Counted from the first letter of the stretch, positions 15,178 through 35,008 are shown. The stretch: DNA of 47,042 nt from Acidobacteriota bacterium (GCA_031369785.1 JANMPI010000510.1:1-47042), one strand, 5' to 3'. The notes: a model not told the origin generated them from the sequence alone. Numbers and translations are program-made.

Positions 15178-17117
15178 AAGCGCTGGTGCTGTGGGGCGAT
15201 GGCGGCGTCGAGTCCGCGCGGGCGCGGCACGACGATGGCGCCCTCCTTCTTCTCTGGGACGGCGAGCGCTCGGCGGCTCTCGATGCGGCGGGCGTCCCGT
15301 ATCGATCCGCGGCGAGCCTCACCGCCGGCGCGCAGGACGCCATCGACGAAGCCGCGATGGCCTGGACGAAGGAGTGGGGACGCCGCGCGCTGCTCGACGG
15401 CAAGAGCTTCCGCGCGCTGTTCGCGTGGAAGGGCGTCTCGCTCTGGTGGTTCGCCGAGCTCTATCTCCATCACTCCACCGACGCCCCGCGGCACGTCCGC
15501 GTCATCGAGTCCGTGCACCGCATCCTCGACGCCGAGACACCGGACGAAGTGGAGACGGTCGGCCTCTCCCCGGAGGACACGCTGCTCGTCGAGCGAACCT
15601 GCACCGCCCGCGGCGTCCTCTTCCAGGGCCCGCGGCGCCTCACCGGATCTCCCGCCGGGCGCAAGGTCGCGAGCGTCGTGCGGCGCAGCCGGTGGAACGC
15701 GGCCAAGGCGCTGCTGACCGCGGCCAAGGCCCGCCTCGCCGGCCCTCCGCAAGCACCGCCGGAGAGCGCGCAACCGACCGTCCTCTTCCTGTCCCACGCC
15801 GCCTTCTGGCGCGCGCGCGATGAAGAACGGGAGGAGTACGAGCACTACTTCGACCGCGTGATCCCCGCCGCCGCCGAGCAGGGCTTGCGGGCGTTCGTGG
15901 TCGCGGTGGGCCCGCGGTCGGCCTTCCGCCGGCGCGGCCGGCGCGAGCAGGTGGCGGAGTGGCTGCGCCTGTCCTCGAGCGACGAGCCGTACGTCCACGT
16001 CAACCGCTACAGCGACGCCCGCGTCCATCGCGAGGTGCGCCGCGCGACGACGATGATCCACGACGGCTGGCAGCGCCTGCGGCGGTCGCCGGCCCTCGTC
16101 GAGGCCTTCTCCCATCGCGGCGTCGCCTTCGCCGATCTCGCGGAGGCCGATCTCGCGTCGACCATGCTTTTGCAGCTGCCGTGGGCGGTGCGCTGCTACG
16201 AGGAGATGGCGGCGGTGCTCCTGTCGGTGCGGCCGGCGGTCGTCTGCCTGTACGCGGAGTCGAGCGGATGGGGGCGGGCGGCGGTCGCGGCCTGCCGCGC
16301 CGCCGGCGTGCCGACGGTCGCCATCCAGCACGGGATCGTCTACCCGAAGTACTACTCGCACCGGCACGCGCCGGACGAAGGTGACACGCCGGTGCCCGAC
16401 GCGACCGCGCTTTTCGGCGCCTCCGCGCGGCGGCTGCTCGTCCACCTCGGCCACCCGCGGCCGGAGTCGCTCGTCCTCACCGGCAGCCCGCGCTTCGACG
16501 AGCTCCTCGAGCGTGCGCGGTCCGGCGACCGCGACGCGCTCCGCCGATCGATGGGCGCCGCGGAAGGGCAACCGCTGGTCGCGGTGGCGAGCCGCTTCCG
16601 GGCCATCCGCGACACCCATTCCGCCATCGGCACCGCGTTCCCGTCCCTGGTCGCCGCGATCCGCGCCCTCGGCGTGCGCGCGGTGGTGAAGCCGCATCCC
16701 GCGGAGTCCCACGGCGAGTACCTGGCCGCCATCGGCCTTTCCGATCCCGCGATCGCGGTGCTGTCGCCGTCCGCCGATCTCCTCGACCTGCTGATCGCGG
16801 CCGACGCGCTCGTAACCGTGGAATCGCTCTCCGCGGTGGAGGCCCTCGTCGTCGGCCGCCCGGTGGTGATCCTCAACATGCCCACGCACCTGGGCGCGCT
16901 GGTGGACGCCGGGGTGGCGTTGGGCGTCGACGCCGGGGCCGATCCCACGGACGTCCTTCGCCGCGCGCTCCTCGACCCCGAGACGCGCAACGCGCTGCAG
17001 CACGCGCGCACCCTGTACCTCGACGAGCTGGCGCTGGGCGTCGACGGGCTTGCCACCCGGCGCATCGTCGACCTGCTGCGCCAGACCGCATCCGCGTCGT
17101 TTCCGGCCATTTCGTAG
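15174..17117 (+). CDS. Unassigned 647-aa protein, C-terminal half GT-B-like (TagF/KpsS-like KPHP motif); candidate glycan/nonulosonate transferase
   Basis: The TTG at 15174 overlaps the upstream TGA (TTGA). The region has coding-type third-position bias. Motifs: VPTVAIQHGIVYP, LTGSPRFDEL, VVKPHPAES, ADALVTVESLSAVEALVVGRPVV. The function is inferred only from context, directly upstream of the NeuB genes. Confidence 0.45.
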   Translation: MKALVLWGDGGVESARARHDDGALLLLWDGERSAALDAAGVPYRSAASLTAGAQDAIDEAAMAWTKEWGRRALLDGKSFRALFAWKGVSLWWFAELYLHHSTDAPRHVRVIESVHRILDAETPDEVETVGLSPEDTLLVERTCTARGVLFQGPRRLTGSPAGRKVASVVRRSRWNAAKALLTAAKARLAGPPQAPPESAQPTVLFLSHAAFWRARDEEREEYEHYFDRVIPAAAEQGLRAFVVAVGPRSAFRRRGRREQVAEWLRLSSSDEPYVHVNRYSDARVHREVRRATTMIHDGWQRLRRSPALVEAFSHRGVAFADLAEADLASTMLLQLPWAVRCYEEMAAVLLSVRPAVVCLYAESSGWGRAAVAACRAAGVPTVAIQHGIVYPKYYSHRHAPDEGDTPVPDATALFGASARRLLVHLGHPRPESLVLTGSPRFDELLERARSGDRDALRRSMGAAEGQPLVAVASRFRAIRDTHSAIGTAFPSLVAAIRALGVRAVVKPHPAESHGEYLAAIGLSDPAIAVLSPSADLLDLLIAADALVTVESLSAVEALVVGRPVVILNMPTHLGALVDAGVALGVDAGADPTDVLRRALLDPETRNALQHARTLYLDELALGVDGLATRRIVDLLRQTASASFPAIS

Positions 17118-17137
17118 GGGCGTGGTAGGTTTACCCC

Positions 17138-18169
17138 GTGCGACCGACGACGTTCACGCTCGGAACCCGGCAGGTCGGCGAGGGACAGCCGTGCTTCGTC
17201 CTGGCCGAGGTCGCGTCCGCCCACGGCGGGTCCGCGGACGTGGCCCTCCGGATGCTGGAGTCGGCGTTCAAGATGGGCGCCGACGGCATCAAGTTCCAGC
17301 TCTTTCGCGCCGACCTCCTGGTGGTCGCGCGGCACCCCGGGCGCAAGGACTTCGACCAGATCGAGCTCGGAGCGAAGGACTGGCAGAGGGTCTTGCGCGC
17401 GGCCAAGGCGTCCGGGCTGACCGTGCTCGCTGAGGCCTTCGATCCGCCCTCCCTCCGCCTCGCGGAAGAGGAAGGCGTCGACGGCTACAAGATCCACTCC
17501 ACGGACATGGAGAACCCGGAGTTCATCAAGGCGGTAGGGACCGTGCGGCGGCCCGTCTTCTTCGCCACCGGCGGCGTTCCCGAAGACGCGGTGCGCGAGG
17601 CCCTCGACCTCGTGGGCAACGCGCCGGTCGGACTGCTGCACGGGTTCCAGACCTTCCCCACTCCGATCGAGGAGATCCGGTTCCGCGAGCTCTCGGCCTG
17701 GAAGGAGCGCTACCGCGTGCCGGTCGGGTTCCTCGATCACACCGACGGCGGAAGTGCCTTCGCGCTGGCCGCTCCCGCCCTCGCCGTGGGCTACGGCGCG
17801 GACCTCGTCGAGAAGCACTTCACGCTCGACCGCAGCGAGAAGGGGTTCGACTACCAGTCGTCGCTCAACCCCGAGGACTTCTACCGCATGGTCGAGCTGC
17901 TGCGCCAGGCCGAGCGCGCGGCGGGGGACGGGCCGGCGGCGGAGAGCGAGGGCGCGAAGCGGTACCACCGCGTGATGGCGCGGTCGATCGTGGCCGGCAA
18001 GCTGATCCCGCGCGGCGAGGTGCTGACCCTCGAGATGCTGGCCTTCAAGCGCACCGACATCCGCTTCGATCCGGGCTTTCCGCCGCGAAATGCGGACCGC
18101 GTCATCGGCCGCCGCGCCGCCCGCCCCATCCAGGCCGACGAGACGATCCGCGAGGACATGCTCCAGTGA
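17138..18169 (+). CDS. NeuB/SpsE-family nonulosonic (sialic-acid-like) acid synthase paralog 1, with C-terminal SAF domain
   Basis: PCFVLAEVASAHGGS..A..M...A...GADGIKFQLF, GYKIHSTDM and VGFLDHTDGGS (metal His context). The C-terminal SAF-like segment is RSIVAGKLIPRGEVLTLEML. GTG start at 17138. Confidence 0.8.
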   Translation: MRPTTFTLGTRQVGEGQPCFVLAEVASAHGGSADVALRMLESAFKMGADGIKFQLFRADLLVVARHPGRKDFDQIELGAKDWQRVLRAAKASGLTVLAEAFDPPSLRLAEEEGVDGYKIHSTDMENPEFIKAVGTVRRPVFFATGGVPEDAVREALDLVGNAPVGLLHGFQTFPTPIEEIRFRELSAWKERYRVPVGFLDHTDGGSAFALAAPALAVGYGADLVEKHFTLDRSEKGFDYQSSLNPEDFYRMVELLRQAERAAGDGPAAESEGAKRYHRVMARSIVAGKLIPRGEVLTLEMLAFKRTDIRFDPGFPPRNADRVIGRRAARPIQADETIREDMLQ

Positions 18170-18948
18170 CCGAGGCGGTGTGGATCGTGGTCTCCGCGCG
18201 GATGGCGTCGTCCCGGTCGCCGGGCAAGGCCATGGCCGACCTCGCCGGGCGCCCGCTGCTCGAGGTGCTGCTTTCGAGGATGAAAACCGCGCGCGGCGTG
18301 GCCGGCGTCGCGCTCGCCACCTCGCAGCGCGACGAGAACCACCCCCTGGCCAAGGTCGCGGGGCGGCTGGGCGTTCCCGTCTTCCGCGGGGACGAGAACG
18401 ACGTCCTCCGCCGGCATCTCGATTGCGCGCGCTGGCTGGGCGCGGATCACGTCGTCCGCGTCACCGGCGACAACCCGCTCACCGACGTGGAAACCGCGGA
18501 ATCCCTGGTGGCTCTCCATCTCGCCGAGGATGCCGACTACACGTACGTGCCCGGGGACGCGCTGCTCATGGGGATCCTGTCCGAGGTGATCGCCACCGAT
18601 GCGCTGGCGCGGGCGTGGGAGCGCGGCGAGGAGCGGCATCGCTCCGAGCTCATGACGCTCTACATCAAGGAGAACCCGGGCGAATTCCGCATCGCGCTGG
18701 GGACGCTGGCCAGGGACCTCTATCGTCCGGAGTACCGGTTGACGGTGGACGAGCCCGAGGACGTGGCCCTCATGCAGGCGCTCTTCGCGCGCCTTGCCCG
18801 GCCCCCGCACGTGGTGACGACGCGGGAGACGATCGCGCTCCTGGACGCCGACCCGTCGCTCGGCGCCATCAACGCCGCCGCCCGCCACAAGGCCGGCAAC
18901 CTCCATTCCGTCGCCCTCGACGCGGGCATCGCCGGCGCGCGCCGATGA
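18166..18948 (+). CDS. SpsF-like cytidylyltransferase-family protein (acylneuraminate cytidylyltransferase superfamily)
   Basis: VWIVVSARMASSRSPGKAMADLAGRPLL matches the SpsF-type N-terminus (QARmgStRLPGK). VVRVTGDNPL is also present. GTGA overlap upstream and ATGA overlap downstream. Confidence 0.75.
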   Translation: MTEAVWIVVSARMASSRSPGKAMADLAGRPLLEVLLSRMKTARGVAGVALATSQRDENHPLAKVAGRLGVPVFRGDENDVLRRHLDCARWLGADHVVRVTGDNPLTDVETAESLVALHLAEDADYTYVPGDALLMGILSEVIATDALARAWERGEERHRSELMTLYIKENPGEFRIALGTLARDLYRPEYRLTVDEPEDVALMQALFARLARPPHVVTTRETIALLDADPSLGAINAAARHKAGNLHSVALDAGIAGARR

Positions 18949-19997
18949 AGTCGACTTTCGAGATAGCGGGCCGCAAGGTCGGCATCGGCCAGCCCTGCTA
19001 CGTGATCGCGGAGGCGGGGGTCAACCACAACTGCGACGTGCAGCTCGGCTACAAGCTGATCGAGACCGCGGCCGCGTCGGACGCCGACGCGATCAAGTTC
19101 CAGAGCTACACCGCGGGCAAGATCTCGACCCGCGTGGCGCCCCGGTACTGGGTGGAGCCGAAGGACCCGAACGGCACGCAGTGGGACACCTTCGACAAGC
19201 TCGACAAGCTGTCCGACCGCGACTTCAAGTCGCTGCTCGGCCAGGCCCGGCACGTCGGGATCACCGCCTTCTCGACACCGTTCGACGACGACGCGGTGGA
19301 CTTCCTGGCCACCCTCGACGTGCCGGCGTTCAAGATCGCGTCCGCCGACCTCACCTGCCACGGGCTCATCGCCCGCGCGGCGCGCCTCGGCAAGCCGATG
19401 ATCCTGTCCACGGGAACGTCGTCGCTGTCGGAGGTCGAGGAGGCGCTCGACGTCTGCCGGCGCGAAGGGAACGAGCAGGTCGCGATCCTCCACTGCACGC
19501 TCAAGTACCCGTGCCCGCCGGAGGCCATCAACCTCCGGATGATGGAGCACCTGATGCGCGCCTTCCCCGAGGTCCCGGTCGGCCTCTCCGATCACTCGCT
19601 CGGGATCAGCGTGCCGCAGGCGGCGGTGGCGCTCGGCGCGTGCGTCGTCGAGAAGCACTACACGGTGGACAAGACCCTCCCGGGGTCGCCCGATCATCAT
19701 CTTTCCGTCGACCCGCCGGAGATGAAGGCAATGGTGTCCGGCATCCGCACGGTGGAGAAGGCGCTGGGCAAGGCGCAAAAGGCGCTGGAGCCCATGGAGC
19801 GCGACGCGTATCTCTTCGCGCGACGCAGCGTCACGTCCGCGGTGGCGATCGCGAAGGGCACCGCGATCACCGCCGCGATGCTCACCTACAAGCGGCCGGG
19901 CACCGGCATCAACGCCAAGCTGCTCGACGTCGTGGTCGGCCGCGTGGCGCGGGTGGACATCCCCGCTGACACCACCATGACCTGGGAAATGCTTTAG
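18945..19997 (+). CDS. NeuB-family nonulosonic acid synthase paralog 2 (NeuB/PseI/LegI-like), canonical motifs
   Basis: PCYVIAEAGVNHNCDVQLGYKLIETAA.SDADAIKFQSY, FKIASADLT, PMILSTGTSSLSEVEEA, VGLSDHSLG and a C-terminal SAF domain. The ATG at 18945 lies within listed ORF 18090-19997. Confidence 0.9.
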   Translation: MKSTFEIAGRKVGIGQPCYVIAEAGVNHNCDVQLGYKLIETAAASDADAIKFQSYTAGKISTRVAPRYWVEPKDPNGTQWDTFDKLDKLSDRDFKSLLGQARHVGITAFSTPFDDDAVDFLATLDVPAFKIASADLTCHGLIARAARLGKPMILSTGTSSLSEVEEALDVCRREGNEQVAILHCTLKYPCPPEAINLRMMEHLMRAFPEVPVGLSDHSLGISVPQAAVALGACVVEKHYTVDKTLPGSPDHHLSVDPPEMKAMVSGIRTVEKALGKAQKALEPMERDAYLFARRSVTSAVAIAKGTAITAAMLTYKRPGTGINAKLLDVVVGRVARVDIPADTTMTWEML

Positions 19998-20078: not shown

Positions 20079-20924
20079 CTAGTTGACGCTGGCCTTCCGG
20101 TTCAGGCTGAACCTCAGGGTGTCCGCGGCGGCGCGCAAGAGGCCGGCGACGTTCGCCCGCGGGTCGTGCGCGCGCCACACGTCCGGGATGGGGCCGCTGT
20201 TGGCGCGCACCACGTCGGCAAGCGCCGCCACTTCTCCGACGGCGGCCACGGTGGCTCCAGCCTGGTAGGTCGTCCGGGCATGGCTGAGCCGTGCCTGGAG
20301 GTCGGCGAGCGCCGGGCCTGGGATGGAGGGCGCGTGGGTGTCGAGAAGAGACTGGGCGGCATCGAACTTCGCGGAAATGACGGTATCGATGGGCCGTCGG
20401 TCGACCACGATCACGAACTCCGAGAAGCCGCCGCCCGTCCCGCCCGCGCGATAGCTCCCGATCCCCTCGTTGCGCATGATGTCGCGGAAGGGGCCGCCTC
20501 CCGATGCCGAATGGAGGGCCAGCGGAATGTTGGGCACGAGGTTCAGGTTGTGGGTGTGCAAGGAGACCGCGACCGTGCCCGCGAAGGAAAGTGCGCTCGA
20601 CGGCGAGGGCTCGATGCGGATCACCACGGGGAAAGCCGCCGGCGGCGCGATCAGCCCTCCGCCTCCGAGCCGGGACAGTAGAGTGCCGTCTAGGGGATTG
20701 ACCAGGCTGGCTGACACCTCGAGCGCGGCCGGGTTCAGCCCCACCACCTGCTCGAAGGTGATCGACAGCTCGGCCCCCACGCCTCCGGGGAGCTGGATCA
20801 CCCCGGTCGCCTCGCTCCCGGATACGGTGAGGGGAATACTGGCCTGGGCGAACACACCCGGCGCGGAGCCGAGCAGACAAGCGACGATCGCGAGGCGCTG
20901 AAAACTGGTCACTTTCGTGAACAA
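20079..20924 (-). CDS. Secreted hypothetical protein (signal peptide, no recognised domain)
   Basis: 281 aa. The N-terminus MFTKVTSFQRLAIVACLLGSAPGVFAQA has an AQA|S SPase-I-like site. It also contains an IVAC lipobox-like string. Codon bias is good. The start is TTG at 20924, without a clear SD. Confidence 0.6.
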   Translation of the reverse strand: MFTKVTSFQRLAIVACLLGSAPGVFAQASIPLTVSGSEATGVIQLPGGVGAELSITFEQVVGLNPAALEVSASLVNPLDGTLLSRLGGGGLIAPPAAFPVVIRIEPSPSSALSFAGTVAVSLHTHNLNLVPNIPLALHSASGGGPFRDIMRNEGIGSYRAGGTGGGFSEFVIVVDRRPIDTVISAKFDAAQSLLDTHAPSIPGPALADLQARLSHARTTYQAGATVAAVGEVAALADVVRANSGPIPDVWRAHDPRANVAGLLRAAADTLRFSLNRKASVN

Positions 20925-20991
20925 GAATTAACGCAGCGGCGACCCCTCGTCAAGCCCATTTGCGCGAAGAAGCAAAAATGAGGCCTTCACC

Positions 20992-21639
20992 TCAGGCGAG
21001 GAGCAAGCCTCGACGGGCCGCGAAGCGGATCAGCTCCGCCGTGCTATGGACGCCAAGCCTCGCCATCAGGTGCGTCCGGTGGTTGTCTACCGTCTTGGGG
21101 CTGATGAAAAGGATGCGCGCGACCTCCGCGTTGGTCCGCCCTTCGATCAGCAGCTGGAAGACCTCGCGCTCCCGTGCCGTCAGCCGCTCATAGGGGTCTT
21201 CCGCGGCGGCGCTTCCCTGCTCGTAGCCGGCAGCCAGGGCCTTGGCCGCCTGGGGCCCGAAGTATCCCTGCCCCGCGCTCACCGCGCGGATGGCGGCCAC
21301 CAGCTCCCCGGCGGCGCTGTCCTTGACCACGTATCCCGAAGCGCCGGCGCGCACGCTGCGGAGGACGTACTCCTCGTCGTCGTGCATGGTGAGGACCAGG
21401 ATGCGGGTGCGGGGCAGCGCCTTGTGGATGCGGCGAGCGGCCTCGAGGCCGCCGAGGCGCGGCATGCTGAGGTCGAGCACCGCCACGTCGGGCCGGGACT
21501 CGAGTGCCTTCTCGACCGCCTCGTGGCCGTCGGCAGCCTCCCCCACTACCTCAAATTCCGCGTGGCTGCGGAGAATACTGATGAGGCCCTGACGGATCAT
21601 GGTGTGATCGTCGGCCACGAGGATCCGGGTCCGCGCCAC
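20992..21639 (-). CDS. NarL/FixJ-family response regulator (REC + LuxR-type HTH)
   Basis: RILVADDH, DVAVLDLSMP (phospho-acceptor Asp context) and TMHDDEEY. The C-terminal HTH reads LTAREREVFQLLIEGRTNAEVARILFISPKTVDNHRTHLMARLG. Confidence 0.92.
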   Translation of the reverse strand: MARTRILVADDHTMIRQGLISILRSHAEFEVVGEAADGHEAVEKALESRPDVAVLDLSMPRLGGLEAARRIHKALPRTRILVLTMHDDEEYVLRSVRAGASGYVVKDSAAGELVAAIRAVSAGQGYFGPQAAKALAAGYEQGSAAAEDPYERLTAREREVFQLLIEGRTNAEVARILFISPKTVDNHRTHLMARLGVHSTAELIRFAARRGLLLA

Positions 21640-21641
21640 GG

Positions 21642-22409
21642 TCAGCGACCGTCTTCCAGCGGCAGCTCCACCTCGACCAGGGTTCCGGCCCCCGGGGCCG
21701 TCCGCAGCTCGAACCGCCCGCCGAAGAGGTCCACGCGGTCGCGCATCCCGCGCAGCCCGCCTCCGTGCTGGTCCTCCCGGGCCGCGAGCGCCGGCCCGGG
21801 GTCGAATCCCCGCCCCTGGTCCCGGACGCTCAGGAAAAGCCGGTCCCGCTCCCGGCGCACGCGGACCTCCGCCGACGCGGCGGCGGCGTGCTTGGCGGCA
21901 TTGGTGAGCGCCTCCTGGACTAGGCGGTAGACGATGGTCTCCAGGTCGGGCCCGACGCGCTCCTCCATGCCCTCGATGGAGAGCTGGACGCCCAGACCCG
22001 TTCCTTCCTGGAGCGTCCGCGCCAGCCAGCGCAGGGTCGGCACCAGGCCAAGCTCGTCGAGCATCTGCGGGCGCAGGAGGCGGGAGAGCTGGCGGACGTC
22101 CTGCAGGGAGCGGTCCGCGATCTGCGTAAGCTCGGCCAGACGGGCTCGCAGCACCCCGTGGTCCGTCGCCGATCGCTCCAGGATCTCGAGCTGCATCTTG
22201 AGCGCAGTCAGGGACTGGCCCACGCCGTCGTGCAGCTCACGGGAGATTCGCCCCCGCTCCACTTCCTGGATCCGCAGGATGCCGCGCGCGATGAGGCGGA
22301 AGCGCTTCTCGCCCTGAGTCAGGCGGTCGAGCAGCCGGGCGTTCTCGGCGGTGATGCGGGCCACATCGCGGGCAAAAGCCTGCTGGCCATCCACCGTCTC
22401 GTCGCTCAC
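21642..22409 (-). CDS. Soluble HisKA_3-type sensor histidine kinase without a recognisable input domain
   Basis: H-box RISRELHDGVGQSLTALKMQLE, N-box EALTNAAKHA, G1 DQGRGFD and G2 GGLRGMRDRV..GG. There is no TM segment. The GTG at 22409 overlaps the TGA of the upstream kinase gene (GTGA). The ATG at 22448 listed in the track would give a 43-nt overlap. Confidence 0.88.
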   Translation of the reverse strand: MSDETVDGQQAFARDVARITAENARLLDRLTQGEKRFRLIARGILRIQEVERGRISRELHDGVGQSLTALKMQLEILERSATDHGVLRARLAELTQIADRSLQDVRQLSRLLRPQMLDELGLVPTLRWLARTLQEGTGLGVQLSIEGMEERVGPDLETIVYRLVQEALTNAAKHAAAASAEVRVRRERDRLFLSVRDQGRGFDPGPALAAREDQHGGGLRGMRDRVDLFGGRFELRTAPGAGTLVEVELPLEDGR

Positions 22410-25400
22410 GGGCGGGCCGTGGTGCGCGCCGCTGATTCCCGCACCCACGGGATGGCGTCGAAGGAGGCGCGGACGTCCGTGGCCATGCCTTCGCGCAACC
22501 GTGCGATCCCGCGCGCCGTCTCCTCGTACTCCCGCGCCGCGGCGGAGGCATCCCCTCTTTTTGCGAGGACCACGCCCAGGAGGGCGTGGAGCCGGGAGAG
22601 TCCCGCCTCAAAACCGTGCCGGCTCGCGGCGGTGAGGGCACGGCGGGCCATCTCTTCGGCCTCGACGAGATGGCCGCGCGCGAGCTGGGCGCGGGTCATC
22701 GCTTCCGCGGCGCGGATACGCAGCATGACGTCTCCCAGTGCGTCGGCCTCCCGCTGCAGGGGACGCAATTGCAAGGTGGCCGCCGCCGCATCGCCGACCG
22801 CGACGAGAACGGCCGCCTGCGCGATGCGGGCACGGAGATACGCGGCCCGGCTGTTGCTCCCACGCGCCTGCTCGACCGCGCGCGCGAGGGCGCGCCGGGC
22901 ATCATCCCCCGCCCCCTGCCGAGCGTGCCATTCGCCGAGGACGACATGGTAATCGGCGGACTGCTCGCGATTGCCGGTCTCGCGCACCCAGGCCTCGGCG
23001 CGGGTGAGCCCCGCCCGTGCCTCGTCCAGCCGCCCGAGCTCCAGCAGCGCGGCCGACTGCTTGATGGTGAATTCGGCCAGCCCCCGCTTGTCTCCCAGGC
23101 CCTCGAGCACGGCGAGGGCCTCGCCGAAGGAGGCGAGCGCCGCCCCGTACCGCCCTTCATATTGCTGAAGCAGCCCCATGTTTCCCAGGGAGACAGCGGT
23201 CGCGTTCTTGTAGTCGATCTCGCGGCTGTCTTCCAGGGCTTTCGCAAAGGCCTTCAGCGCCTCGCCCCAGCGCCCCTGCACAATGTGGAGGAATCCCAGG
23301 TTCTGCGTAGACAGGACGATCCCGGCCTTCTCCCCGAGCTTCCGCCGGAGGTCGAGAGATTGCTTCCAATACACGAAGGCGTTGTCGTACTCGCCCTCCA
23401 CGAAGAATATGTAGCCGACGTTGTCGTAGCTCTGCGCCATCTGGCGCTCGTCTCCCATGTTGCGCCGGACCTTGAGCGCGTCCTGGTACGCCTTCAGCGC
23501 CTGCCCGAACTCGCCCCGGTTCTCGTGCACGAGGCCGAAGTCGTTCAGGACATCGGCGAGCCCGGCCCGGTCGCCGATTTTTTCCGCGATGCGGCGCGCC
23601 TCCTTCAGGTCAGGCTCCGCGGCGGCGAGGTTGCCCATCGAAATGTGCATCCGCGCCCGGTTCTTGAGGCTGGTCGCCACCCCGCGCTCGTCCCCGAGGC
23701 GCTGGCGGATGGCCGCGGCGGCGGAGTACTTCTCGATCGCCTGCGGGTAGTCCCCCAGTTGGTGGTACGCCACGCCCATCGCGTTCAGCACCTCGGCCTG
23801 CCCCTGCTCGTTGTGGAGCTGGCCGTGCAGGGCCAGCGCCCTCACGAGATGATCCTTCACCGCACGGCCGGCGTTTCCCATGAGGATGGTGTTCTTCCCC
23901 AGCAGGAACCACACGCGGGGGTCGCTGCGGTCGAGCTGCGACGCTTTTTCAAGGGTTGCCACGGCCCGGGCCACGTCGCCCTGACTCGCCTGCGCCGAAG
24001 CGAGATCGAGCAGCGCCTCGAGGTCGTTGGGGAAGCGGCGGGCCAGCTCGACGTAGCTCTTCTCCGCTTCCGCGGGCTCGCCGCGGAGGAGGGCCACGCG
24101 TGCCCGGATGCGATATCCAAGGCGTGCTTCGCTCGCTCCGGCGGCCCGGGCGGCGCGCTCCGCGACGGCAAGGGCCTTTTCTTCGTAGCCCAGGTTCTGG
24201 TAGGTCTCGGCCAGGCGCTCCAGGGCCACGGCGAATTCCGGGTCGGCGGCGACCGCCTTCTCCAGGGCAGGAGCGGCCGACACGTATTCCCCCCGGGCCA
24301 GGAGATCGCGGCCCTCCTGGTAGGCCCGGGCCGCGGCCAGCGAGGTCGTCTCCGGGAGCGCGGCCGCCGCCCGCGCCGCCTGCTCCGCGCCGAGATCGCG
24401 CCGCAGCCGATCGCCCAGGGCGTCCACCATGCGAAAGAGACCGTCATCCCCGGTGGACTCGTCGCCGAAATGACGCGTCTCCATCACCCCCGAGGGACTC
24501 ACCGCGACCAGCCGCAGGTCAATCCGCACGGTGGAGCCCGCCTTGCGCACGCTGCCGGCCACCAGGCGGTCGACCTCAAGCGTCTCCGCCAGTTGCCGCA
24601 GGGCGCGCTCGTCCTGCGTCCGGCCCAGCTTCAGATCACGCAGCGAATGGAAGACCCGCTGCGCGTCGAGCACACGAAGGGCGGGGCTCTCCGAGAGACC
24701 GGCAGCCAGCATCTCGGGGATGCCGGTCCCGGCCCAGTCGAGGTCGGGGTCCGCGGTCTCGACGTTCAGGGGGAGGACGGCAACCGAGTGCAGGGCCGCC
24801 ACCGGGGGCGCGGACGGCGACGGCAATCCGCCGGGCGGCGCAGGGCCCCGATTCCGCTGCGCGCCCCAGATTCCGGCCGCGGCGAGCACTGCGACGCACG
24901 CGGCCAGCCAGTACTGACGGCGGATCGCCGGCGTCCGCACGGCCCGCCGATCGAGGTCCGCGACCAGGTCGCGCGCGGACTGGTAACGACGGGAAGGGCT
25001 CCGTTCCAGGCACCGCGCAATCGCGGCGCGCACGTAGGCGGGGACCGCGATTCCCGTCTCGCGGATGTCGCGGGCGCGTCCGCCGATGCGCTGGGCGAGG
25101 ATCTCGGCCTGGGACTCGCCGGGAAAGGGCAGTTGCCCGGTGAGGATCTCGTAGAAAAGGATGCCGAGGGCGTAGACGTCGCTGCGGCCGTCGATCGCCT
25201 CCCCCGCCACCTGCTCCGGCGAGAGGTAATCGGGCGTTCCCACCACGGCCCCGGTGCGGGTGAGCCCCTCGCGGCCGAGGGAGCGGGCGACGCCGAAGTC
25301 CGTGACATAGGCGGTGTCATCCGCCTCGACCAGGACATTGGCGGGCTTGAGGTCGCGATGGACGACCCCGGCGTCGTGCGCCTGCTGCAGGGCTTCCGCG

Positions 25401-25810
25401 ACTTGGCGGACGATCCGTTCCGCGCGCGCAACGGGCAAGGAGCCCTCCGCGCGCAGGACCTCGAGCAACGAGCGCCCCTCCACGTAACGCATGGTCAGGA
25501 AGCGCAGGCCCTGGTCCTCGCCGATGTCGTGGATGCGCACGACGTTGCGATGCGTGACCTGCCGCGCCAGCACCAGCTCGCGCCGGAAACGCGCGATCCA
25601 GTCGGGATCGGCGCCCAGGTCCGGCCGCAGGACCTTGAGCGCGACATCCTCGTCCAGCTCGAGGTCGCGGGCCTTGTAGACGACACCCATGCCCCCGATG
25701 CCCGCGGTCGCGATCACACGGTAGCGGCCGGCGACGACGGCCCCGGGGGCCAGCTGGCGCGCCATGTCCACGCTGGTGTCGGTGTCCTTCAAGGGCGGGC
25801 GGGCGCCCAC
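22406..25810 (-). CDS. Hanks-type Ser/Thr protein kinase with one TM helix and a very long extracytoplasmic TPR region
   Basis: GIGGMGVVYKA, VALKV, HRDLKPANVL, DFGVAR and GTPDYLSPE. The TM helix is YWLAACVAVLAAAGIWGA at about residues 300-317. It is followed by a VAVLPLNVETADPDLDWAGTGIPEML-type module and about 700 aa of TPR-like repeats. The start is GTG 25810 or ATG 25765. Confidence 0.9.
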   Translation of the reverse strand: MGARPPLKDTDTSVDMARQLAPGAVVAGRYRVIATAGIGGMGVVYKARDLELDEDVALKVLRPDLGADPDWIARFRRELVLARQVTHRNVVRIHDIGEDQGLRFLTMRYVEGRSLLEVLRAEGSLPVARAERIVRQVAEALQQAHDAGVVHRDLKPANVLVEADDTAYVTDFGVARSLGREGLTRTGAVVGTPDYLSPEQVAGEAIDGRSDVYALGILFYEILTGQLPFPGESQAEILAQRIGGRARDIRETGIAVPAYVRAAIARCLERSPSRRYQSARDLVADLDRRAVRTPAIRRQYWLAACVAVLAAAGIWGAQRNRGPAPPGGLPSPSAPPVAALHSVAVLPLNVETADPDLDWAGTGIPEMLAAGLSESPALRVLDAQRVFHSLRDLKLGRTQDERALRQLAETLEVDRLVAGSVRKAGSTVRIDLRLVAVSPSGVMETRHFGDESTGDDGLFRMVDALGDRLRRDLGAEQAARAAAALPETTSLAAARAYQEGRDLLARGEYVSAAPALEKAVAADPEFAVALERLAETYQNLGYEEKALAVAERAARAAGASEARLGYRIRARVALLRGEPAEAEKSYVELARRFPNDLEALLDLASAQASQGDVARAVATLEKASQLDRSDPRVWFLLGKNTILMGNAGRAVKDHLVRALALHGQLHNEQGQAEVLNAMGVAYHQLGDYPQAIEKYSAAAAIRQRLGDERGVATSLKNRARMHISMGNLAAAEPDLKEARRIAEKIGDRAGLADVLNDFGLVHENRGEFGQALKAYQDALKVRRNMGDERQMAQSYDNVGYIFFVEGEYDNAFVYWKQSLDLRRKLGEKAGIVLSTQNLGFLHIVQGRWGEALKAFAKALEDSREIDYKNATAVSLGNMGLLQQYEGRYGAALASFGEALAVLEGLGDKRGLAEFTIKQSAALLELGRLDEARAGLTRAEAWVRETGNREQSADYHVVLGEWHARQGAGDDARRALARAVEQARGSNSRAAYLRARIAQAAVLVAVGDAAAATLQLRPLQREADALGDVMLRIRAAEAMTRAQLARGHLVEAEEMARRALTAASRHGFEAGLSRLHALLGVVLAKRGDASAAAREYEETARGIARLREGMATDVRASFDAIPWVRESAARTTARP

Positions 25811-25815
25811 GCGCG

Positions 25816-26766
25816 TCAGAGCGCCGGCGGATCGAGGGCGAGGCGCGGCGGGGAGGGCTCGTGCGCGCGGAGCGCGAGCGATCCGATGCGCTGCTGCAAC
25901 TCCTCGACCGAAGCGCTGGTGCGGGACGGGCGCGCCTGGAGCTCGGCGATCCGCCGCTCCAGCTGCAGGCCGCCAATGACCAGCGCCGTGTGCTCGGCGA
26001 GGGCTTCCAGGATCTCCAGGTCCAGGTCCGTGAAGCCGCCGCCGGCCGTGGTGCTGTCCACGTAGAGGATGCCGAGCAGGCGGTCGTCCTGGAGCAATGG
26101 CACGCAGGCCAGGACCCCCAGGCGCATCTCCACCACGCTCGCCCGCGCGCCCAGCAGCGGATGGCGCTGGGCATCGGAGACGACGACGCTGGCATGGGTC
26201 TCCACCGCGTGCCGCAGGGCCCCGACGCTGCCCGTGAACCCGTCGTCCCGCACCTGGCCGGGAGCGAACCCGGCCGCGACCTCCGCGTGCAGCCGCCCGT
26301 CGGCGCCCGCGATCAGGACGAACCCCCGCTCGGCGCCCGTGGCCCCGAGGGCGGATTCCAGGAGCCGCAGCAGCAAGTCGAAGGTGTCCAGATCGGCGTT
26401 CAACCTGCGCTTGAGCTCGATGCTGGTGTGGAGCCGCGCGAGGCGCTGTCCCGAAAGGGCGCGCGCCTCATCCTCCGTGATGCGGTCGAAGCGGCCGAGG
26501 AGGCCGCCAAAGCTCAACCACTCTCCGCCCTCCAGGCGTCGGCCGGAGACGGCCATCCCGTTCACGGAGGAGCCGTTCTTGCTGCCGGCGTCTTCGAGAG
26601 TCCACCCGTCGCTCCAGACCAGCCGCGCGTGCTGTTTCGACACCCGGCCATCCTCGATCACCAGCCCGCATTCGGGATCGCGCCCGATGGTCAGGCTTTC
26701 TCCGTCACCGATCACGATGAACCTGGCCGGCCGGTGCGGGGGATGAAGTGTCAGCTTGGCGGGCAT
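25816..26766 (-). CDS. FHA domain - GAF domain protein
   Basis: The ATG at 26766 (MPAKLTLHPP) is the chosen start. FHA motif: LTIGRDPECGLVIEDGRVSKQHARLVWSDGWTLEDAGSKNGSSVNG. GAF-like motif: GAERGFVLIAGADGRLH...LGILYVDS. The upstream 26767-26901 part of the listed ORF looks non-coding. Confidence 0.85.
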   Translation of the reverse strand: MPAKLTLHPPHRPARFIVIGDGESLTIGRDPECGLVIEDGRVSKQHARLVWSDGWTLEDAGSKNGSSVNGMAVSGRRLEGGEWLSFGGLLGRFDRITEDEARALSGQRLARLHTSIELKRRLNADLDTFDLLLRLLESALGATGAERGFVLIAGADGRLHAEVAAGFAPGQVRDDGFTGSVGALRHAVETHASVVVSDAQRHPLLGARASVVEMRLGVLACVPLLQDDRLLGILYVDSTTAGGGFTDLDLEILEALAEHTALVIGGLQLERRIAELQARPSRTSASVEELQQRIGSLALRAHEPSPPRLALDPPAL

Positions 26767-26799: not shown

Positions 26800-26875
26800 A
26801 AGCGGTCCCGGGAGTTCAGCGTATGAAGGATCTTCGCCCCTGCCCCCGGGGGAGTCAAGACAGCCCCAAAAGGAG

Positions 26876-26908
26876 CGCTCGCGTGGACCCGGAAGGCCCA
26901 CGCGAGCG
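26876..26908 (-). terminator. Intrinsic-terminator-like hairpin downstream of metalloprotease 1
   Basis: Perfect 11-bp inverted repeat CGCTCGCGTGG / CCACGCGAGCG with an 11-nt loop. It lies 27 nt after the TAG at 26938-26936. On the minus strand it is followed by CTCCTTTTGGGG (a T4 tract). Confidence 0.6.
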
Positions 26909-26935: not shown

Positions 26936-29900
26936 CTACTGGTTCAGCACCGTGCGCGCGATGCTGATCTCGATGGAGAACGCTCCGGGGACGTTCAGCA
27001 CCTGCACCCGGTAGACGCCCGGAGCCGACACCGGCTTGTCCAGGCCGGAGACGGTGAGGCCCGGGATCAACGCTTCACCGGTGGCGATCAGGTTGCCCGC
27101 GGGGTCGAGGAGCCGCACCGTCAGCGGCACAGCACTTCCGGTCACGACCACGGAGACGTCCCGGTCGAGCGAGCCTACGTTGACCGTCCGCTCGACGACC
27201 GGCCCCTCGCTCGACGAAGCCGTGCTCGTGGTGGTGACCGACCCGGATTCCGCGGCGGCGGGATTGGGCCCGCTCCCCGCGCACCCGAAGGCGAAGCCGT
27301 CCACGGTCACCACGCCCGTCCGGTGAACGAGCTTGAACTCGTGCGCGGCCAGGGTGAGGCCGGAGTAGGTGAGGCGGTGCCCGAAGGTCGGCGATCCGCT
27401 GCCGCTGGCATAGGACACCGTGCCCCGGAGGATGCCGTCGATGAAGACGTCCGCCGTCCCCGCCGCGGGCGTGATCACGAAGAAGTAGGTGATCGACGTG
27501 GCATTGAAGACGACGCGCGCGGTGGGGGTGCCGGACCCGTTGTTTGTCCCCGTGCGCTCCTGATAGCGGCCGTTGGAGGCGCGCACGTCCGTCTTCCGAT
27601 GCCAGCCGTTCTTGTACTCGACCGCGCGGTCGCCTTCGTCGATGGAGACGCAGTTCTCGTTGACCGTCACCGTGACGTTGGCGGGGTCGGTGCCGCCCCG
27701 CCCGTCGGAGTTCGTGTACGTGAACGTGTCGGCGCCGATGAAGTTCGCGTCCGGGGTGTAGGTGACGGTGCTGCCGTTGGTCGTGGCGGTTCCGTTGGGC
27801 GGATCGCCGACCGCGGTGACGGTCAGGGGGTCGCCGTCGGGGTCGCTGTCGTTCCCGAGCACGTTCACCGTGACCGGGGTGTTCACGATGGTGGTGGCGG
27901 TGTCGTCCACCGCGTCGGGGGCGGCGTTGCAGATGTCGGACTGCTGGTCGGGGCCCTGGAGCAGGACGTTGGTGAGCCGGACCTGGTCGAACTGCAGTCC
28001 TTCGAGGGACTGCAGGGCATCCGAGCCGTAGGCCACCTCGATCTGCACGGGCTGGCCGGCGTAGCCCGCGGCTCCCAGGGCGGTCGCGCTCCAGGTGCTC
28101 TCCGCCCACGGATTGGCCGGCTGGGTTGCGGAAGTCGCCCACCCGGGGCCGTTGTTGCAGCCGGTGTAGGAGTTGGCCGCGTTGTAGAGCCGCCCGCCGC
28201 TCGGGTTGACGATCGTCGTCTGCCCCTGCGCGTTGACGATCCCCACGTTGCCGCGGTCGTAGAACGGCGTCGCGGGCGTCTCGGGCTCGGTGGCGAACTG
28301 GTTGTAGAGCGACAGGGTCGAGCTCGCGGTGAGCCGCACCTTCGGCGATCGCGCGCGGTCGCAGGCGTTGTCCGCCCCGGAGGACGACTTCAGGTAGAAG
28401 GCGCTGCCGTCTGCTCCCGGCGGCGGGAGGTTGGTGCGGTCGAAGGTCCCCGAGAACGTCGTCCAGCCCTGAGCTCCGCTCTCGAAGTCGAAAATCGCGT
28501 TCCCGAGCACGAGGTCGGTCTCGGTATCGCGCACGGTGAGGATTCCCGTGGCCATGACGGGGCCGCCGGGGCTGTCGGCCTCCACCGCGACGTTGAAGGT
28601 CAAGGTGGACTGGGAAGCCAGGCCTCCCGCGCGGAAGCGGAAGGTCGCGGGCCCCGTCGAGTTGGCGCCTCCGCATCCGGCGCCCAGCGACCCCACGACG
28701 ATGGGCAGGGTGGTGAGGATCGACGTCTGCCCGCTGGACGGCTGGATCGCCGTGACGCGCACGTTGGTCAGGTTCATGCCGCCGGTGTTCACGACGTTGA
28801 AGGTCAGGCCCGCGATCTCGCAGTTGTCCACGAACGGATCGCCGTCGCCGGTCTCGATGACGGGACTCGCGCCTTTATCTTCGACCGCGACGCCGGGGCC
28901 GGTGAGGATGCCCGGCGCGAGCGGCGTGACCATGGCGCAGGCGCTCATGGGCCCGGCGCAGGATTCGGCGGGGACGCCCAGCGCGCCGCCCACGGCCACC
29001 ACGCTGTAGTAGTAGGTGAGCCCGTCGAGGAGGTCGCTCTGGGTGAAGGTGAAGCTGCCCGCGGCGGCCGGCACCTCGGCGACGCGGGTCTTGCCGAAGT
29101 CGCATCCGTGAACGCCGTCCGTCCGCAGCACCCAGTACTCGGCCGCGCCGGGAACGGCGGGCCAGGTGACGGTCGCGCTCTGCACGCCGGCGGTGGCCGT
29201 GACCGTGGGGGCGGTGATCGGGGCCGGAGTGGCCACGCAGCCCAGGTTCATCGGAAGCGGCGCGCCGCAGGCGATGCCGTGGCGGCTGAAGGCGTCGTGG
29301 ATGGCCACCATGTGCGGCGTGCCGTTGCCGATGGCGCCGTCGTCGTCGTCCGCAGCCAGGAAGTTCAGGTACCAGCTGTCCGCGTTGCACCCGCCGAGGG
29401 CGACGTCGCAGGTGTAGCCGAAGGTCACCCCGCCCGCGGCGCGGTAGAACAGCCGCGTGGTGAGGACCAGCGACGAATTGTCGTCCATGAAGCGGGGCAG
29501 GGCGTTCGTGCACCGGCCGCCGGCCACTGTCCCCGAGGCGTGGCTCTCCCACCGGCGCGTGTGACAGGGCAGGTCACGCTTGAGGAGGTCCCACACCGAC
29601 TCGCCGATGATCGTTCCCTCGCAGTGGGTCGAGCGGCCGCAGGGGCCGCCGCCCAGGGCGGGGGTGGGCGGATTGAGAACGGGGCAGCCGCCCGGGATGG
29701 TGGGGTTCTGCCCCAGCACCCAGGCGAGGTCGTGCGGCCGCTGCGACTGGCGCTTCTTCCAATCATCCTCGCGGACGCCGGTGCACTCCGTGCACGGGTC
29801 GCCGTTACCGCCGCAGGTGCCCGTGGTGTAGAAGCCCCGGCCGATGCACGAGGTGTTCAGCCGGAAGATGGCCGCCATGTCCGCGTACGCCTCGCCGGGG

Positions 29901-31426
29901 GAGCTGACTCCCGGGTGGTCGTCGAAGTGGTCGAGCCCGTGCCCCCACTCGTGGTCGAAGACGGCCGCGATCTCGCCCGTATTGCGGCACCGGCCGCTGT
30001 TGGGCGACGCCGAGACCTCGCGATAGAAGTTGATGGAACCGGTGGCGGGATTGGCGGTATCCGCAAAGCTGAAGAACGCGTTGCACGAGTTGTTGATGTT
30101 CATGTTGGCCGGGAGCTGGCGGTTGAGCCATTGCCTGGACACAGCACCGGGGCCCAGCCAGCTCTTGGCCTGGTCGATGATGCGGTTCACTTCGTAGAAG
30201 CCCGTGCGCGCGGAGTGGGTGTCCCCCGCGGAGTGGCCGGGGGGCACGGCGCAGTCGGTGCCGGCGCTCATCCCGAGGTCCAGGGCCGGGCAGGCGGTGG
30301 ACTCGTTGATGATGCCGCAGTTGTCCACGATCTTGACGAAGGGACCGGTCAGGTCCGTGCGGAACTGCCCGCTCACCGGCACGAGGCCCTCGCTGTTGGA
30401 CGTCAGCCGCGTGCTGTCCTGCTTGAACACGTAGGCGCGGGACATCGGGTATCCGGGCTGCTCGACGCCGTCCGGGATTCCGCCCGGCGAGGCGCCGTCG
30501 TTGCTCACGGGGAAGATGCCGCCCACGACCTTCTTATGGTCCATGTACTGGTTGGTGTCGGCAAAGGCGAGGAGATCGCCGTCGTGAGCGTCGACCAGGC
30601 CCTCCCAGCCGCCGAGGCTTCCATTCACCTGCGGGCCGACGGCCCAGGCCAGGCGATAGCGGTACCCGCTGCCCTCGATCGAGGCACTGCCGTCGCCGCC
30701 GGCCATGGGCAGCAGCACCAGCTGCGCGCGGCGCCAACTCGCGATCGTGAAGCCCGACAGGTGGCGCGCCACCACGGCCTGGGCCTGCGATGCGGACAGG
30801 CGCGGGGTGGTGGAAACGTCGACCGCACCCCAGCTCTGTGTCCCATACAGGACGAGGTTGCCGTGGTTGATCGTCGCCTTGACGAAGCTCCGCCGCACGG
30901 GAACTCCGTTCACCACCCGATCGACGTTGATGTGCACGAGGCCGCCGTTGTCGTAGCTGCCGATGCTCGGCGGGCCCAGCTCCGCCGCGTCGATGCCCAG
31001 CTGCGCCCGGTGCGCGGCCAAGTAACCGCGGAACGCCTGCCACACCGCGTCCTTGTACGCGGCGTCGCCGGTCGGAGCGCCCAGACCCAGTCCCTGCCAG
31101 GTGAGCCGGTTGCCCACCCCGGTTCCGGGAACGACCGGAGCCGCAGGAAGCAACGTACCCCACCGCCCGCCGCGCACGTCGTAGAAGCCGAGCGCGCCCG
31201 CGACTCCCAGCGTGTCGAGCTGCGGGCCCAGGCGAGCGGCCATCTCCGGGGGAAGCTTCGCGATGGGCTGATGGACGTTGCGGAGGTAGAGCCCATCAAC
31301 CTCGAAGGAGAGCGCCGCGACGGGATCGCCCTCGGGGGGGACCGCCGCCCCGGCCAGGGCGGGCAGGAGCATCAGTGCGCCCACGACCAGGCGTCGAGTC
31401 CGGTTCTGCGCGCTTGACTTCATCAT
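26936..31426 (-). CDS. Giant secreted multidomain zinc metalloprotease (gluzincin, FTP/PepSY-type propeptide, M36/M4-like HEWGH core), paralog 1
   Basis: The ATG pair at 31426/31423 is preceded by GAGGAG. Signal peptide: [28 protein letters not shown]. The HEWGH motif is encoded at 29953-29939, followed by PGEAYAD (candidate third zinc-ligand Glu). The core is Cys-rich. Further modules: FN3-like ([21 protein letters not shown]), cadherin/VCBS-like ([18 protein letters not shown]...[12 protein letters not shown]) and a PPC-like C-terminus. Confidence 0.8.
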
Positions 31427-31491
31427 GCTCTCCTCGGTGGACGCTCGATGGCGTCGCAGACAGGTGTCTGTTTTGACGGCGCGATGCGCGG

Positions 31492-34400: not shown

Positions 34401-34878
34401 TGCCCTCGTGGGCGCCGATGGTCGGCGGGGCGAGCTCCGCCACGTCGACGCCGAGCTCGGCTTCGTGCGTTTCCAGCCAGGCCGTGAACGCCTGCCACAC
34501 CGCCTCCTTGTACGCGGCGGCGTCGGCGGGCGGGGCGGCCGCCCAGCCGAGCGTGTTGCCCACTCCCGGCCCCGGAACCAATGGAGTGGCCGTGATCAGC
34601 GAACCCCAGCGCCCGGCGCGGACGTCGTACCCTCCCGCTTCGCCCTCCACGGAGAGCGCGGAGAGGTCGTCGCGCAGCTTCCGGTTCAGCTCGTCCGGCA
34701 GTTGATCGAGGGACAAGTGGACGGCGCGGACGAACAGGTCGCGGTGCCCGGTCACACGCCGTTCGACGCGATCGCCCTCGGGCGGGACGGCCGCGACGGC
34801 GTCTCGCGCGGGAAGCAGTAGAGCGACGACGAAGGAAGCGCAAACGAGCGCGATCGCGCCACGAGCCGTCGTGTTCAT
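31492..34878 (-). CDS. Giant secreted multidomain zinc metalloprotease, paralog 2
   Basis: The ATG at 34878 is preceded by GGAGG 8 nt upstream on the minus strand. Signal peptide: [29 protein letters not shown]. The HEWGH motif is encoded at 33408-33394. It is colinear with paralog 1 through the propeptide, catalytic, Cys-rich, FN3 and cadherin-like parts. The C-terminus differs. Confidence 0.8.
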
Positions 34879-35008
34879 GCGGTGAGCCTCCATGACCGCA
34901 AGACTAGGCAACCGCACGCGCACCCGACAATGAGGGAACCGCCTCAGAAAAGGGTGAGAAGGCAACTCATTTTTCGGGCGTGGCCGGAGCCCGTGCTAAG
35001 TTCGCGCG

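Follow-up and report, generated by a model that had tools for sequence, protein, structure and literature searches.

The 47,042-nucleotide (nt) contig JANMPI010000510.1 of an Acidobacteriota assembly (GCA_031369785.1), analyzed over its full length and called the window below, has a G+C content of about 71% and carries on its minus strand (26766-20992) four open reading frames (ORFs) in the order FHA-GAF protein, Hanks-type Ser/Thr kinase with TPR repeats (STK), HisKA_3-type histidine kinase (HK) and NarL/LuxR-type response regulator (RR). These four genes are best read as one compact, translationally coupled operon, with possible read-through into the next gene, which encodes a secreted DUF6689 protein. 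We propose that STK and FHA-GAF feed the sensor-less HK and, through it, RR; beyond co-transcription we infer the steps of this chain, and give them an even chance of being right.

The junctions between the genes were read directly on the minus strand and agree with the spacings of 5, -4 and 2 nt given in an earlier note on this DNA. The stop codon TGA of FHA-GAF (25818-25816) is separated by 5 nt (cgcgc) from the GTG start of STK at 25810, the tetranucleotide GTGA at 22409-22406 is common to the stop codon TGA of STK and the start codon GTG of HK, and the TGA of HK (21644-21642) is followed after 2 nt by the GTG of RR at 21639. Each domain named in the earlier note was recovered by Pfam, namely FHA (2e-14) and GAF (6e-14) in the first protein, Pkinase (8.1e-49 over residues 30-277), TPR_12 (1e-39) and multiple TPR families in STK, HisKA_3 (3e-18) and HATPase_c (4e-16) in HK, and Response_reg (2e-28) and GerE (9e-21) in RR, and the catalytic and recognition motifs listed there are all intact according to Pfam and the alignments. 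The start of FHA-GAF proposed there, ATG 26766 and not the longest-ORF start at 26901, is correct, in agreement with the N-terminus MPAKLTLHPP, nearly invariant in 26 homologues, and with an independent gene caller, which on a near-identical contig (L011) reports the same four products of 316, 1134, 255 and 215 amino acids (aa). None of the five proteins (the four operon products and DUF6689) reaches an equivalog cut-off of NCBIfam, and an Rfam scan of the whole window gave no match.

The boundaries of the unit are consistent with co-transcription, as was initially supposed. The terminator hairpin located directly after the stop codon of an upstream gene for a giant secreted protein ends that gene and isolates the operon (coordinates of all features are given in Table 1). 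Between it and FHA-GAF lies a promoter-like element that is kept in L013, L015 and L017 in spite of the divergence of the intergenic DNA around it. An element of the form TTGAC(T/A)-17-(C/G)A(A/G)(G/C)AT also heads the cluster in L001, L002, L018, L019, L020, L022 and L025, where the first gene is that of DUF6689, and a pattern search finds it 5' of the first gene in 13/69 loci, compared to 0.6% of background windows. A scan with the consensus of sigma-70 promoters found no promoter, this element having emerged from the comparison of loci; a second, weaker promoter-like element preceding DUF6689, likewise absent from the scan, is put forward with low confidence. The small hairpin at the RR stop codon is kept in L013 and L015 and is probably a weak terminator or attenuator. 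Given the terminator, the promoter-like element and the distal hairpin, in addition to the overlaps between genes, the four genes are best interpreted as a single operon.

The loci compared were collected by alignment of FHA-GAF homologues (10 from GTDB representative genomes, 80 from metagenomes, and more from exact-protein look-ups), and the presence of genes was scored by tblastn of the window proteins against all loci; a crude gene caller based on third-codon-position G+C, which merged or missed some genes, was used for choosing ORFs for Pfam and not for the counts. Recurrence of the four-gene order in related genomes had been named in the earlier note as a check that its reading could fail, and the order does recur, in at least 13 independent loci (L001, L002, L006, L009, L013, L015, L019, L022, L025, L099, L100, L101 and the near-identical L011/L012), with FHA-GAF identities from 40% to 86%; taken over all loci, it is conserved from 40% to 100% FHA-GAF identity. 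STK is the next gene after FHA-GAF in 48/64 loci. HK and RR follow STK in 10 of the 24 loci that have a complete STK and at least 1.6 kb of downstream DNA; L009 comes in addition, its STK (42% identity) being below the scoring threshold. In all five loci where an independent gene caller gave an intact STK (L011, L013, L099, L100, L101) the STK and HK genes overlap by 4-11 nt, and in 6/6 called loci, including L015, HK and RR either overlap by up to 4 nt or are at most 2 nt apart. Moreover, from a search that started from HK, three homologues with 57-63% identity on long contigs were taken without regard to context, and all three sit in the cassette (L099-L101, in the order DUF6689, FHA-GAF, STK, HK, RR); in these, STK and HK overlap by 8-11 nt, and HK and RR by 1-4 nt. 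Such an arrangement is more than chance, and the STK/HK overlap together with the co-occurrence across diverged genomes suggests a dedicated pairing. One 1.5-kb metagenome contig (L031, 209-1475), with the rest of the neighborhood falling outside the contig, lacks an intervening STK, its FHA-GAF gene directly overlapping the 5' end of an HK gene (67% identity to the window HK), which argues for a direct partnership of FHA-GAF and HK.

DUF6689 was initially treated as a mere neighbor, but proves to be the most constant partner. Its gene is located immediately 5' of FHA-GAF in 49 of the 71 loci with room to judge, whereas in the clade of the window itself (L011-L013, L015) it comes after RR; the two families are of similar size (445 hits for DUF6689 and 465 for FHA-GAF). 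By gene order, DUF6689 counts as a fifth member of the cassette, and as the one kept most faithfully; the broad core consists of DUF6689, FHA-GAF and STK. In a midpoint-rooted neighbor-joining tree of FHA-GAF (without support values) the loci with HK and RR are basal and those with STK only form a derived clade, which suggests that the five-gene form is ancestral. According to the titles of related metagenome-assembled genomes (MAGs), the family belongs mainly to Acidobacteriota labelled Vicinamibacteria, with one MAG labelled Luteitalea and one Gammaproteobacteria (L009); two HK homologues are named Thermoanaerobaculia. The Gammaproteobacteria-labelled MAG has the full set from DUF6689 to RR (JBQTHP010000004.1, 5252-11799; locus G+C 67%; 40-65% identity), then a convergent gene for a 1253-aa Big_9-like protein, which points to horizontal transfer or else to an error in binning or labelling. 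One MAG (AA35, QHVJ01) has two different FHA-GAF loci (L005 and L007, 49% and 57% identical to the window protein); hence the module exists as paralogues within one genome.

The features of the individual proteins bear on how they may be connected. HK has no transmembrane segment and no PAS, GAF or other sensor domain (Pfam, hydropathy), and, since it lacks a sensor of its own, convergence of STK and FHA-GAF on the His-Asp pair is the most economical reading. The boxes ELHDGVGQ, QEALTNAAKHA, DQGRGF and GGGLRGMRDR are conserved in 10 HK orthologues, and the H-box is preceded by about 45 residues of a highly conserved helix (EN.RL..RL...E.RFR), whose conservation equals that of the H-box itself. 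RR is canonical, with DD9-10, D55, T83 and K105 conserved in 10 orthologues, and the two proteins form a pair of the HisKA_3/NarL type.

The FHA domain retains the residues predicted to contact phosphothreonine, as G28, R29 and S43 do not vary among 26 homologues, at least 90% of which also have H46 and N64. In the AlphaFold2 (AF2) model of the protein (pLDDT 82) the FHA domain (residues 1-95) is followed by a helix (98-121), a GAF domain (128-278) with a terminal 32-residue helix, and a further helix (284-295). The FHA part superposes on GarA, OdhI and FhaA (for GarA and OdhI, TM-score 0.83-0.9 and root-mean-square deviation about 1.5 A), and the GAF part resembles the GAF domains of sensor kinases, including GAF-A of DosS (TM-score 0.76 on the target). 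The NKFDE motif of cyclic-nucleotide-binding GAF domains is absent, as judged by inspection of the FHA-GAF sequence, and the haem-binding histidine is not conserved. In STK all motifs expected of a Hanks-type kinase (PF00069) are readable (GIGGMGVVY, VALKV, HRDLKPAN, DFG, LTRTG, SPE). T184 in its activation loop is conserved in 24 orthologues, and N-terminal to the kinase domain there is a motif (D/E)-T-x-T-x-x-D-L, comprising T11 and T13, kept in at least 90% of the 24 orthologues and in both clades. The only hydrophobic segment of STK, at residues 300-318, has a mean Kyte-Doolittle value of 1.48 (19-residue window), below the usual 1.6, and orthologues keep an Arg-flanked hydrophobic stretch in this position, hence a single-pass membrane topology with an extracytoplasmic TPR region is probable, not certain.

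In the proposed chain STK would be the sensor, its TPR region being probably extracytoplasmic and DUF6689 its possible ligand or co-receptor. Activated STK would autophosphorylate on T184 and on T11-x-T13, and the FHA domain would dock on these phosphothreonines, as GarA does on PknB and PknG. FHA-GAF would then supply the input of HK, acting as a GAF sensor domain in trans, that is, as a split version of the GAF-HisKA_3 kinases DosS and NarS; direct Thr phosphorylation of HK by STK may be an additional or alternative route. HK would phosphorylate D55 of RR, which in turn would change transcription, probably that of the cassette itself, of DUF6689, and of the neighboring genes for giant surface proteins or polysaccharide synthesis. 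We favor this chain because of the STK/HK overlap, the location of all three HK homologues in the cassette, the sensor-less HK and the conserved phosphothreonine-contacting residues of FHA, and also because of the conserved T-x-T, the FHA-GAF/HK overlap in L031, the similar family sizes of DUF6689 and FHA-GAF, and the precedents for STK action on histidine kinases described below.

A more specific version, which we put forward tentatively and consider about half as probable as the general one, is a dedicated, hard-wired hybrid phospho-relay, in which phosphothreonine rather than a ligand-binding domain is the input of HK, and a GAF-HK sensor is assembled only when STK is active. Here STK, partnered outside the cytoplasm by the new-fold protein DUF6689, would autophosphorylate its T-x-T and recruit FHA-GAF, whose C-terminal helices would complete the truncated signalling helix of the sensor-less HK. 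The trio of DUF6689, FHA-GAF and STK could then serve as a portable front end, connected to the NarL-type pair in the window and to a stressosome with a histidine kinase or to sigma-54 regulators in sister clades.

Several observations weigh against the convergence of STK and FHA-GAF on HK. In 14 of the 24 informative loci DUF6689, FHA-GAF and STK occur with no adjacent HK and RR, so this trio can function without them. The four-part unit and the relay described in the earlier note are retained here with this reservation: the four genes are coupled in the window and the logic of convergence is still the most economical, but HK and RR are not obligatory partners. In HK and RR there is no conserved non-canonical Ser or Thr that could be a phospho-site (10 orthologues, the HK N-terminal helix and ATP lid included), nor a conserved counterpart of the ATP-lid Thr of CroS in HK. 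The invariant residues of the GAF domain (R147, D198, R208, S210, C221) do not point to a known ligand class, and the small-molecule sensing assigned to it in the earlier note is putative. The window operon has no gene for a PP2C phosphatase. A shared operator was looked for in the promoter regions of three candidate targets, namely the operon, DUF6689 and the giant genes, but no inverted repeat other than the terminator was common to them. Finally, given the marginal hydropathy of segment 300-318, the TPR region of STK could be cytoplasmic, the extracytoplasmic location assumed earlier depending on this one segment.

The simplest alternative is co-expression only, with two independent pathways (STK/FHA-GAF and HK/RR) that share one promoter and exchange no signal, HK sensing a cytoplasmic cue via its own N-terminal helix or an unlinked partner. 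It gains from the loci lacking HK and RR and from the missing phospho-sites in these two proteins, and also from the occurrence of the trio beside RsbR/S/T-like proteins with a HisKA kinase, sigma-54 regulators and PilZ/GGDEF proteins, given which signalling genes may merely cluster in these genomes. On the other hand, independent pathways do not fit well with an STK/HK start-stop overlap kept over 40% to 100% FHA-GAF identity, with the finding of three out of three distant HK homologues in the cassette, with an HK devoid of any input domain, or with the locus that couples FHA-GAF directly to HK, and we consider this explanation unlikely.

Somewhat less likely still is that STK acts on RR and not on HK, with Thr phosphorylation tuning DNA binding by RR, and FHA-GAF being a separate substrate or scaffold with another output. 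Most documented cross-talk between Ser/Thr kinases and two-component systems targets the response regulator (PMC12189002), and RR is the best-conserved protein of the cassette (60-91% identity across loci). Still, all conserved Thr residues of RR are in canonical REC or LuxR-type helix-turn-helix positions, and action on RR would leave unexplained both the loss of all sensor domains by HK and the FHA-GAF/HK overlap in L031.

Table 1. Features of the operon and its surroundings in the window (all positions refer to the 47,042-nt stretch).
Feature	Position	Strand	Description	Basis
FHA-GAF protein	25816-26766	minus	316 aa, cytoplasmic; FHA residues 1-95, long helix, GAF about 128-278	Pfam, AF2
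Hanks-type Ser/Thr kinase (STK) with TPR	22406-25810	minus	1134 aa; T11/T13 motif before kinase domain 30-277; one hydrophobic segment 300-318; C-terminal region of about 800 aa with TPR arrays	Pfam
Soluble sensor-less HisKA_3 histidine kinase (HK)	21642-22409	minus	255 aa; conserved N-terminal helix, H-box ELHDGVGQ, ATPase domain	Pfam, hydropathy, 10-orthologue alignment
NarL/LuxR-type response regulator (RR)	20992-21639	minus	215 aa; REC and GerE helix-turn-helix	Pfam, alignment
Secreted DUF6689 protein	20079-20912	minus	277 aa; signal peptide ending VFAQA	Pfam (1.5e-62), synteny, AF2
Two paralogous giant secreted proteins	26936-34893	minus	ORFs 26936-31495 and 31492-34965; recurrent neighbors, not part of the operon	
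Intrinsic terminator hairpin	26876-26908	minus	15-bp stem with 11 G-C pairs, then TTTTGG	
Promoter-like element	26830-26858	minus	TTGACT-17-GAAGAT	Locus comparison
Small hairpin with T-run	20979-20994	minus	TGAGGT-N4-(G/A)CCTCA, 6 bp; overlaps the RR stop codon	
Second promoter-like element	20925-20953	minus	TTGACG-17-TAATTC, just 5' of DUF6689; conserved in L013, not in L015	

DUF6689 has a signal peptide with the h-region at residues 11-30, and its AF2 model (pLDDT 90, pTM 0.85) consists of a beta sandwich (29-171) and a four-helix bundle (175-276). Comparison of this fold with the PDB gave no meaningful match (the best one with E 1e-3 and TM-score 0.3), and a literature search found no mention of DUF6689.

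The genes that follow or precede the trio differ between clades. In the sister clade (e.g. L057, L060) a stressosome-like set comes after STK (14603-18148 in L060, 14660-18993 in L057), made up of RsbR- and RsbS-like STAS proteins, an RsbT-like kinase, a PP2C phosphatase (observed in L057), an RsbU_N-HisKA kinase and an Hpt protein; upstream there are one NtrC-type and two NarL-type regulators. L002, L019, L022 and L101 also have one gene each of the RsbU_N-HisKA and RsbT-like types, located after RR. In L036 a GAF-sigma-54 activator follows STK, and some FHA-GAF paralogues stand alone or beside PilZ/GGDEF genes. One such lone paralogue (L097, 8442-14506) neighbors a PAS-GGDEF-EAL protein, a PilZ protein and a PilZ-Pkinase-PEGA-TonB_C kinase, which hints at a link of the FHA-GAF family to cyclic di-GMP signalling in some lineages. 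Judging by gene content, the same input trio is apparently reused with different outputs across clades.

The sister clade also differs in its promoter region. A sigma-54-type -24/-12 element, (C/T)GGCGC-N5-TTGCT, occurs before DUF6689, about 50-140 nt 5' of its estimated start, in 17/45 loci compared to 0.9% of background windows (L005, L050, L051, L057, L059-L061, L063-L065, L067, L069, L073, L074, L076, L077 and L094). Where DNA upstream of such an element is present, it contains a divergent gene for an NtrC-type response regulator, and the module therefore seems to change its promoter class between clades. In the window, the spacer of the operon's promoter-like element contains the palindrome CCCCCGGGGG (26843-26852), whose halves co-vary between loci, the corresponding sequences being GACTCC-N4-GGAGTC in L015 and L017 and CTCCCC-CC-GGGGAG in L013; it may be a candidate operator or a DNA/RNA hairpin. 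These observations could be taken for a reverse wiring, in which HK and RR stand upstream and control transcription of the module, autoregulating the operon promoter and setting the level of the STK module, and in the sister clade the sigma-54-type element and the NtrC-type gene do make a two-component regulator a plausible driver of module expression; but this would still leave HK with no input, is compatible with the chain from STK and FHA-GAF to HK and RR, as positive autoregulation is common in two-component systems, and seems to us improbable as a replacement for it.

The two giant paralogues upstream of the operon are 62% identical over approximately 860 N-terminal residues, and both are secreted, as judged by hydropathy; the likely start of the second ORF is ATG 34893 or 34878. 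Pfam assigns one Big_9/cadherin-like domain to each. In the earlier note they were called proteases, but no peptidase family was matched in Pfam (E<=0.01 for whole proteins, E<=1 for the HExxH region), NCBIfam or PDB sequences (E<=10), and of this assignment the HExxH-type motif alone remains. This motif, HEWGH(x19)GEAYAD at about residue 515 in a Cys-rich region without a match to any Pfam, NCBIfam or PDB family, is shared by both giants and their homologues in L013, L014, L015 and L098, and, because of its conservation, a zincin-like active site is possible, perhaps in an undescribed zincin-like domain. Large Ig-like surface proteins are encoded near the cassette in L009, L013-L015, L017, L095, L098, L099 and L100 and are absent there in L001, L002, L019, L022 and L025; their recurrence in several lineages is a weak hint that the giant surface proteins are targets of the cassette. 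The cassette and the giants are flanked on the plus strand (12444-19997 and 35009-39152) by surface-sugar genes, encoding glycosyltransferases, two tandem NeuB-family nonulosonic acid synthases, a CTP_transf_3 cytidylyltransferase fusion, a GDP-mannose-dehydratase-like epimerase and a Wzx-like flippase.

The individual parts of the cassette and the idea of cross-talk between Ser/Thr kinases and two-component systems are already known. The earlier suggestion that the combination is not a described system agrees with our literature search, which found no description of the four genes together and nothing relevant on FHA-GAF. Nor did we find it described that FHA-GAF proteins form a family of their own, that they are stably paired with DUF6689 and a TPR receptor kinase, that a HisKA_3 kinase devoid of a sensor and a NarL-type regulator are attached to them by translational coupling, or that the input trio is, as it appears, combined with further His-Asp outputs. 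Where Ser/Thr kinases are known to act on two-component systems, the kinase is nearly always promiscuous and its targets unlinked, so that specificity and physiological relevance are difficult to demonstrate. Here, one Ser/Thr kinase, one phosphothreonine reader, one histidine kinase lacking an input and one response regulator are apparently fixed as a coupled unit in soil Acidobacteriota that have diverged deeply. Should these components signal to each other, they would constitute a minimal four-protein system that can be reconstituted for testing how phosphothreonine gates His-Asp phosphotransfer, and a role would be found for DUF6689, a confidently predicted fold with no solved relative. 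Moreover, a first access would be gained to regulation in Vicinamibacteria, which are abundant in soil but have hardly been cultured, and perhaps also to how giant surface proteins and surface-sugar genes are controlled.

Among the systems compared, the DegS-DegU pair of Bacillus subtilis, to which HK and RR were likened initially, shares with them the solubility of the HisKA_3 kinase, the helical region at its N-terminus and a regulator of the NarL type; DegU controls secreted degradative enzymes. The resemblance holds at the family level only, with no sign of orthology: neither DegS nor DegU is represented in the NCBIfam matches, of which the best, all below their cut-offs, are MctS, UhpB and LiaS for HK (MctS 153.7 bits, cut-off 700) and MctR- and NarL-like models for RR (MctR 192 bits, cut-off 300).

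The type VI secretion pathway TagQRST-PpkA-PppA-Fha1 of Pseudomonas aeruginosa combines a membrane Hanks-type kinase, an FHA protein and the exported TagR, which promotes activation of the kinase and may serve as an analogy for DUF6689. Its output is a secretion machine and it includes PppA, whereas here there are no type VI secretion genes and no PppA, and the output is a two-component pair. In Myxococcus xanthus, the FHA-containing hybrid histidine kinase EspA and the Ser/Thr kinases PktA5 and PktB8 are linked via FHA in one locus. In EspA, FHA is fused to a histidine kinase with PAS and receiver domains and no GAF, whereas here FHA-GAF and a minimal HK are separate genes in all loci, and the EspA model of NCBIfam touches the FHA region only (23.7 bits, cut-off 1400).

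The actinobacterial PknB/PknG-GarA (OdhI) system, like the one described here, pairs a Hanks-type kinase with a small FHA protein, the FHA folds being superposable. Autophosphorylated N-terminal threonines of PknG recruit GarA (PMC12189002), and the T-x-T motif conserved N-terminal to the STK kinase domain is comparable to them. GarA has a flexible N-terminal tail with the ETTS phospho-acceptor and regulates metabolic enzymes, whereas the N-terminus of FHA-GAF belongs to the FHA domain, which is fused to GAF and encoded together with HK and RR. A GarA-like intramolecular switch with T6 of MPAKLTLHPP as the phospho-acceptor was considered and rejected, because residues 3-7 (AKLTL) are confidently modelled as FHA strand 1; the first ten residues have a mean pLDDT of 88 and form no flexible tail, and the OdhI model scores 26.5 bits with a cut-off of 200.

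Stimulation of histidine kinases by Ser/Thr kinases, as proposed here, has been described for PknL-NarS (T380), IreK-CroS (T346) and YbdM-DegS (PMC12189002), and Thr phosphorylation of DosR, CovR, VraR, GraR and AlgR is reported to tune DNA binding by these response regulators. In the first three systems, from Mycobacterium tuberculosis, Enterococcus faecalis and B. subtilis, respectively, a Hanks-type kinase modulates autokinase activity with no FHA adaptor, in contrast to the operon studied here, where FHA-GAF is present. The genes for PknL, IreK and YbdM lie away from those of the two-component systems, and each of these kinases has many substrates. NarS and DegS belong, as HK does, to the HisKA_3 kinases and have NarL-type regulators as partners; DegS is also soluble, like HK.

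The same list of parts is found in DosS/DosT-DosR and NarS-NarL of M. tuberculosis, which consist of GAF, HisKA_3 and HATPase domains and a NarL-type response regulator, and the DosS/DosR pathway also receives input from a Ser/Thr kinase, as PknB phosphorylates the DevSR regulator (PMC12189002). In DosS and NarS the GAF domain is a part of the histidine kinase polypeptide, whereas in the cassette it is carried by a separate, FHA-linked protein, and its coupling to HK would occur in trans.

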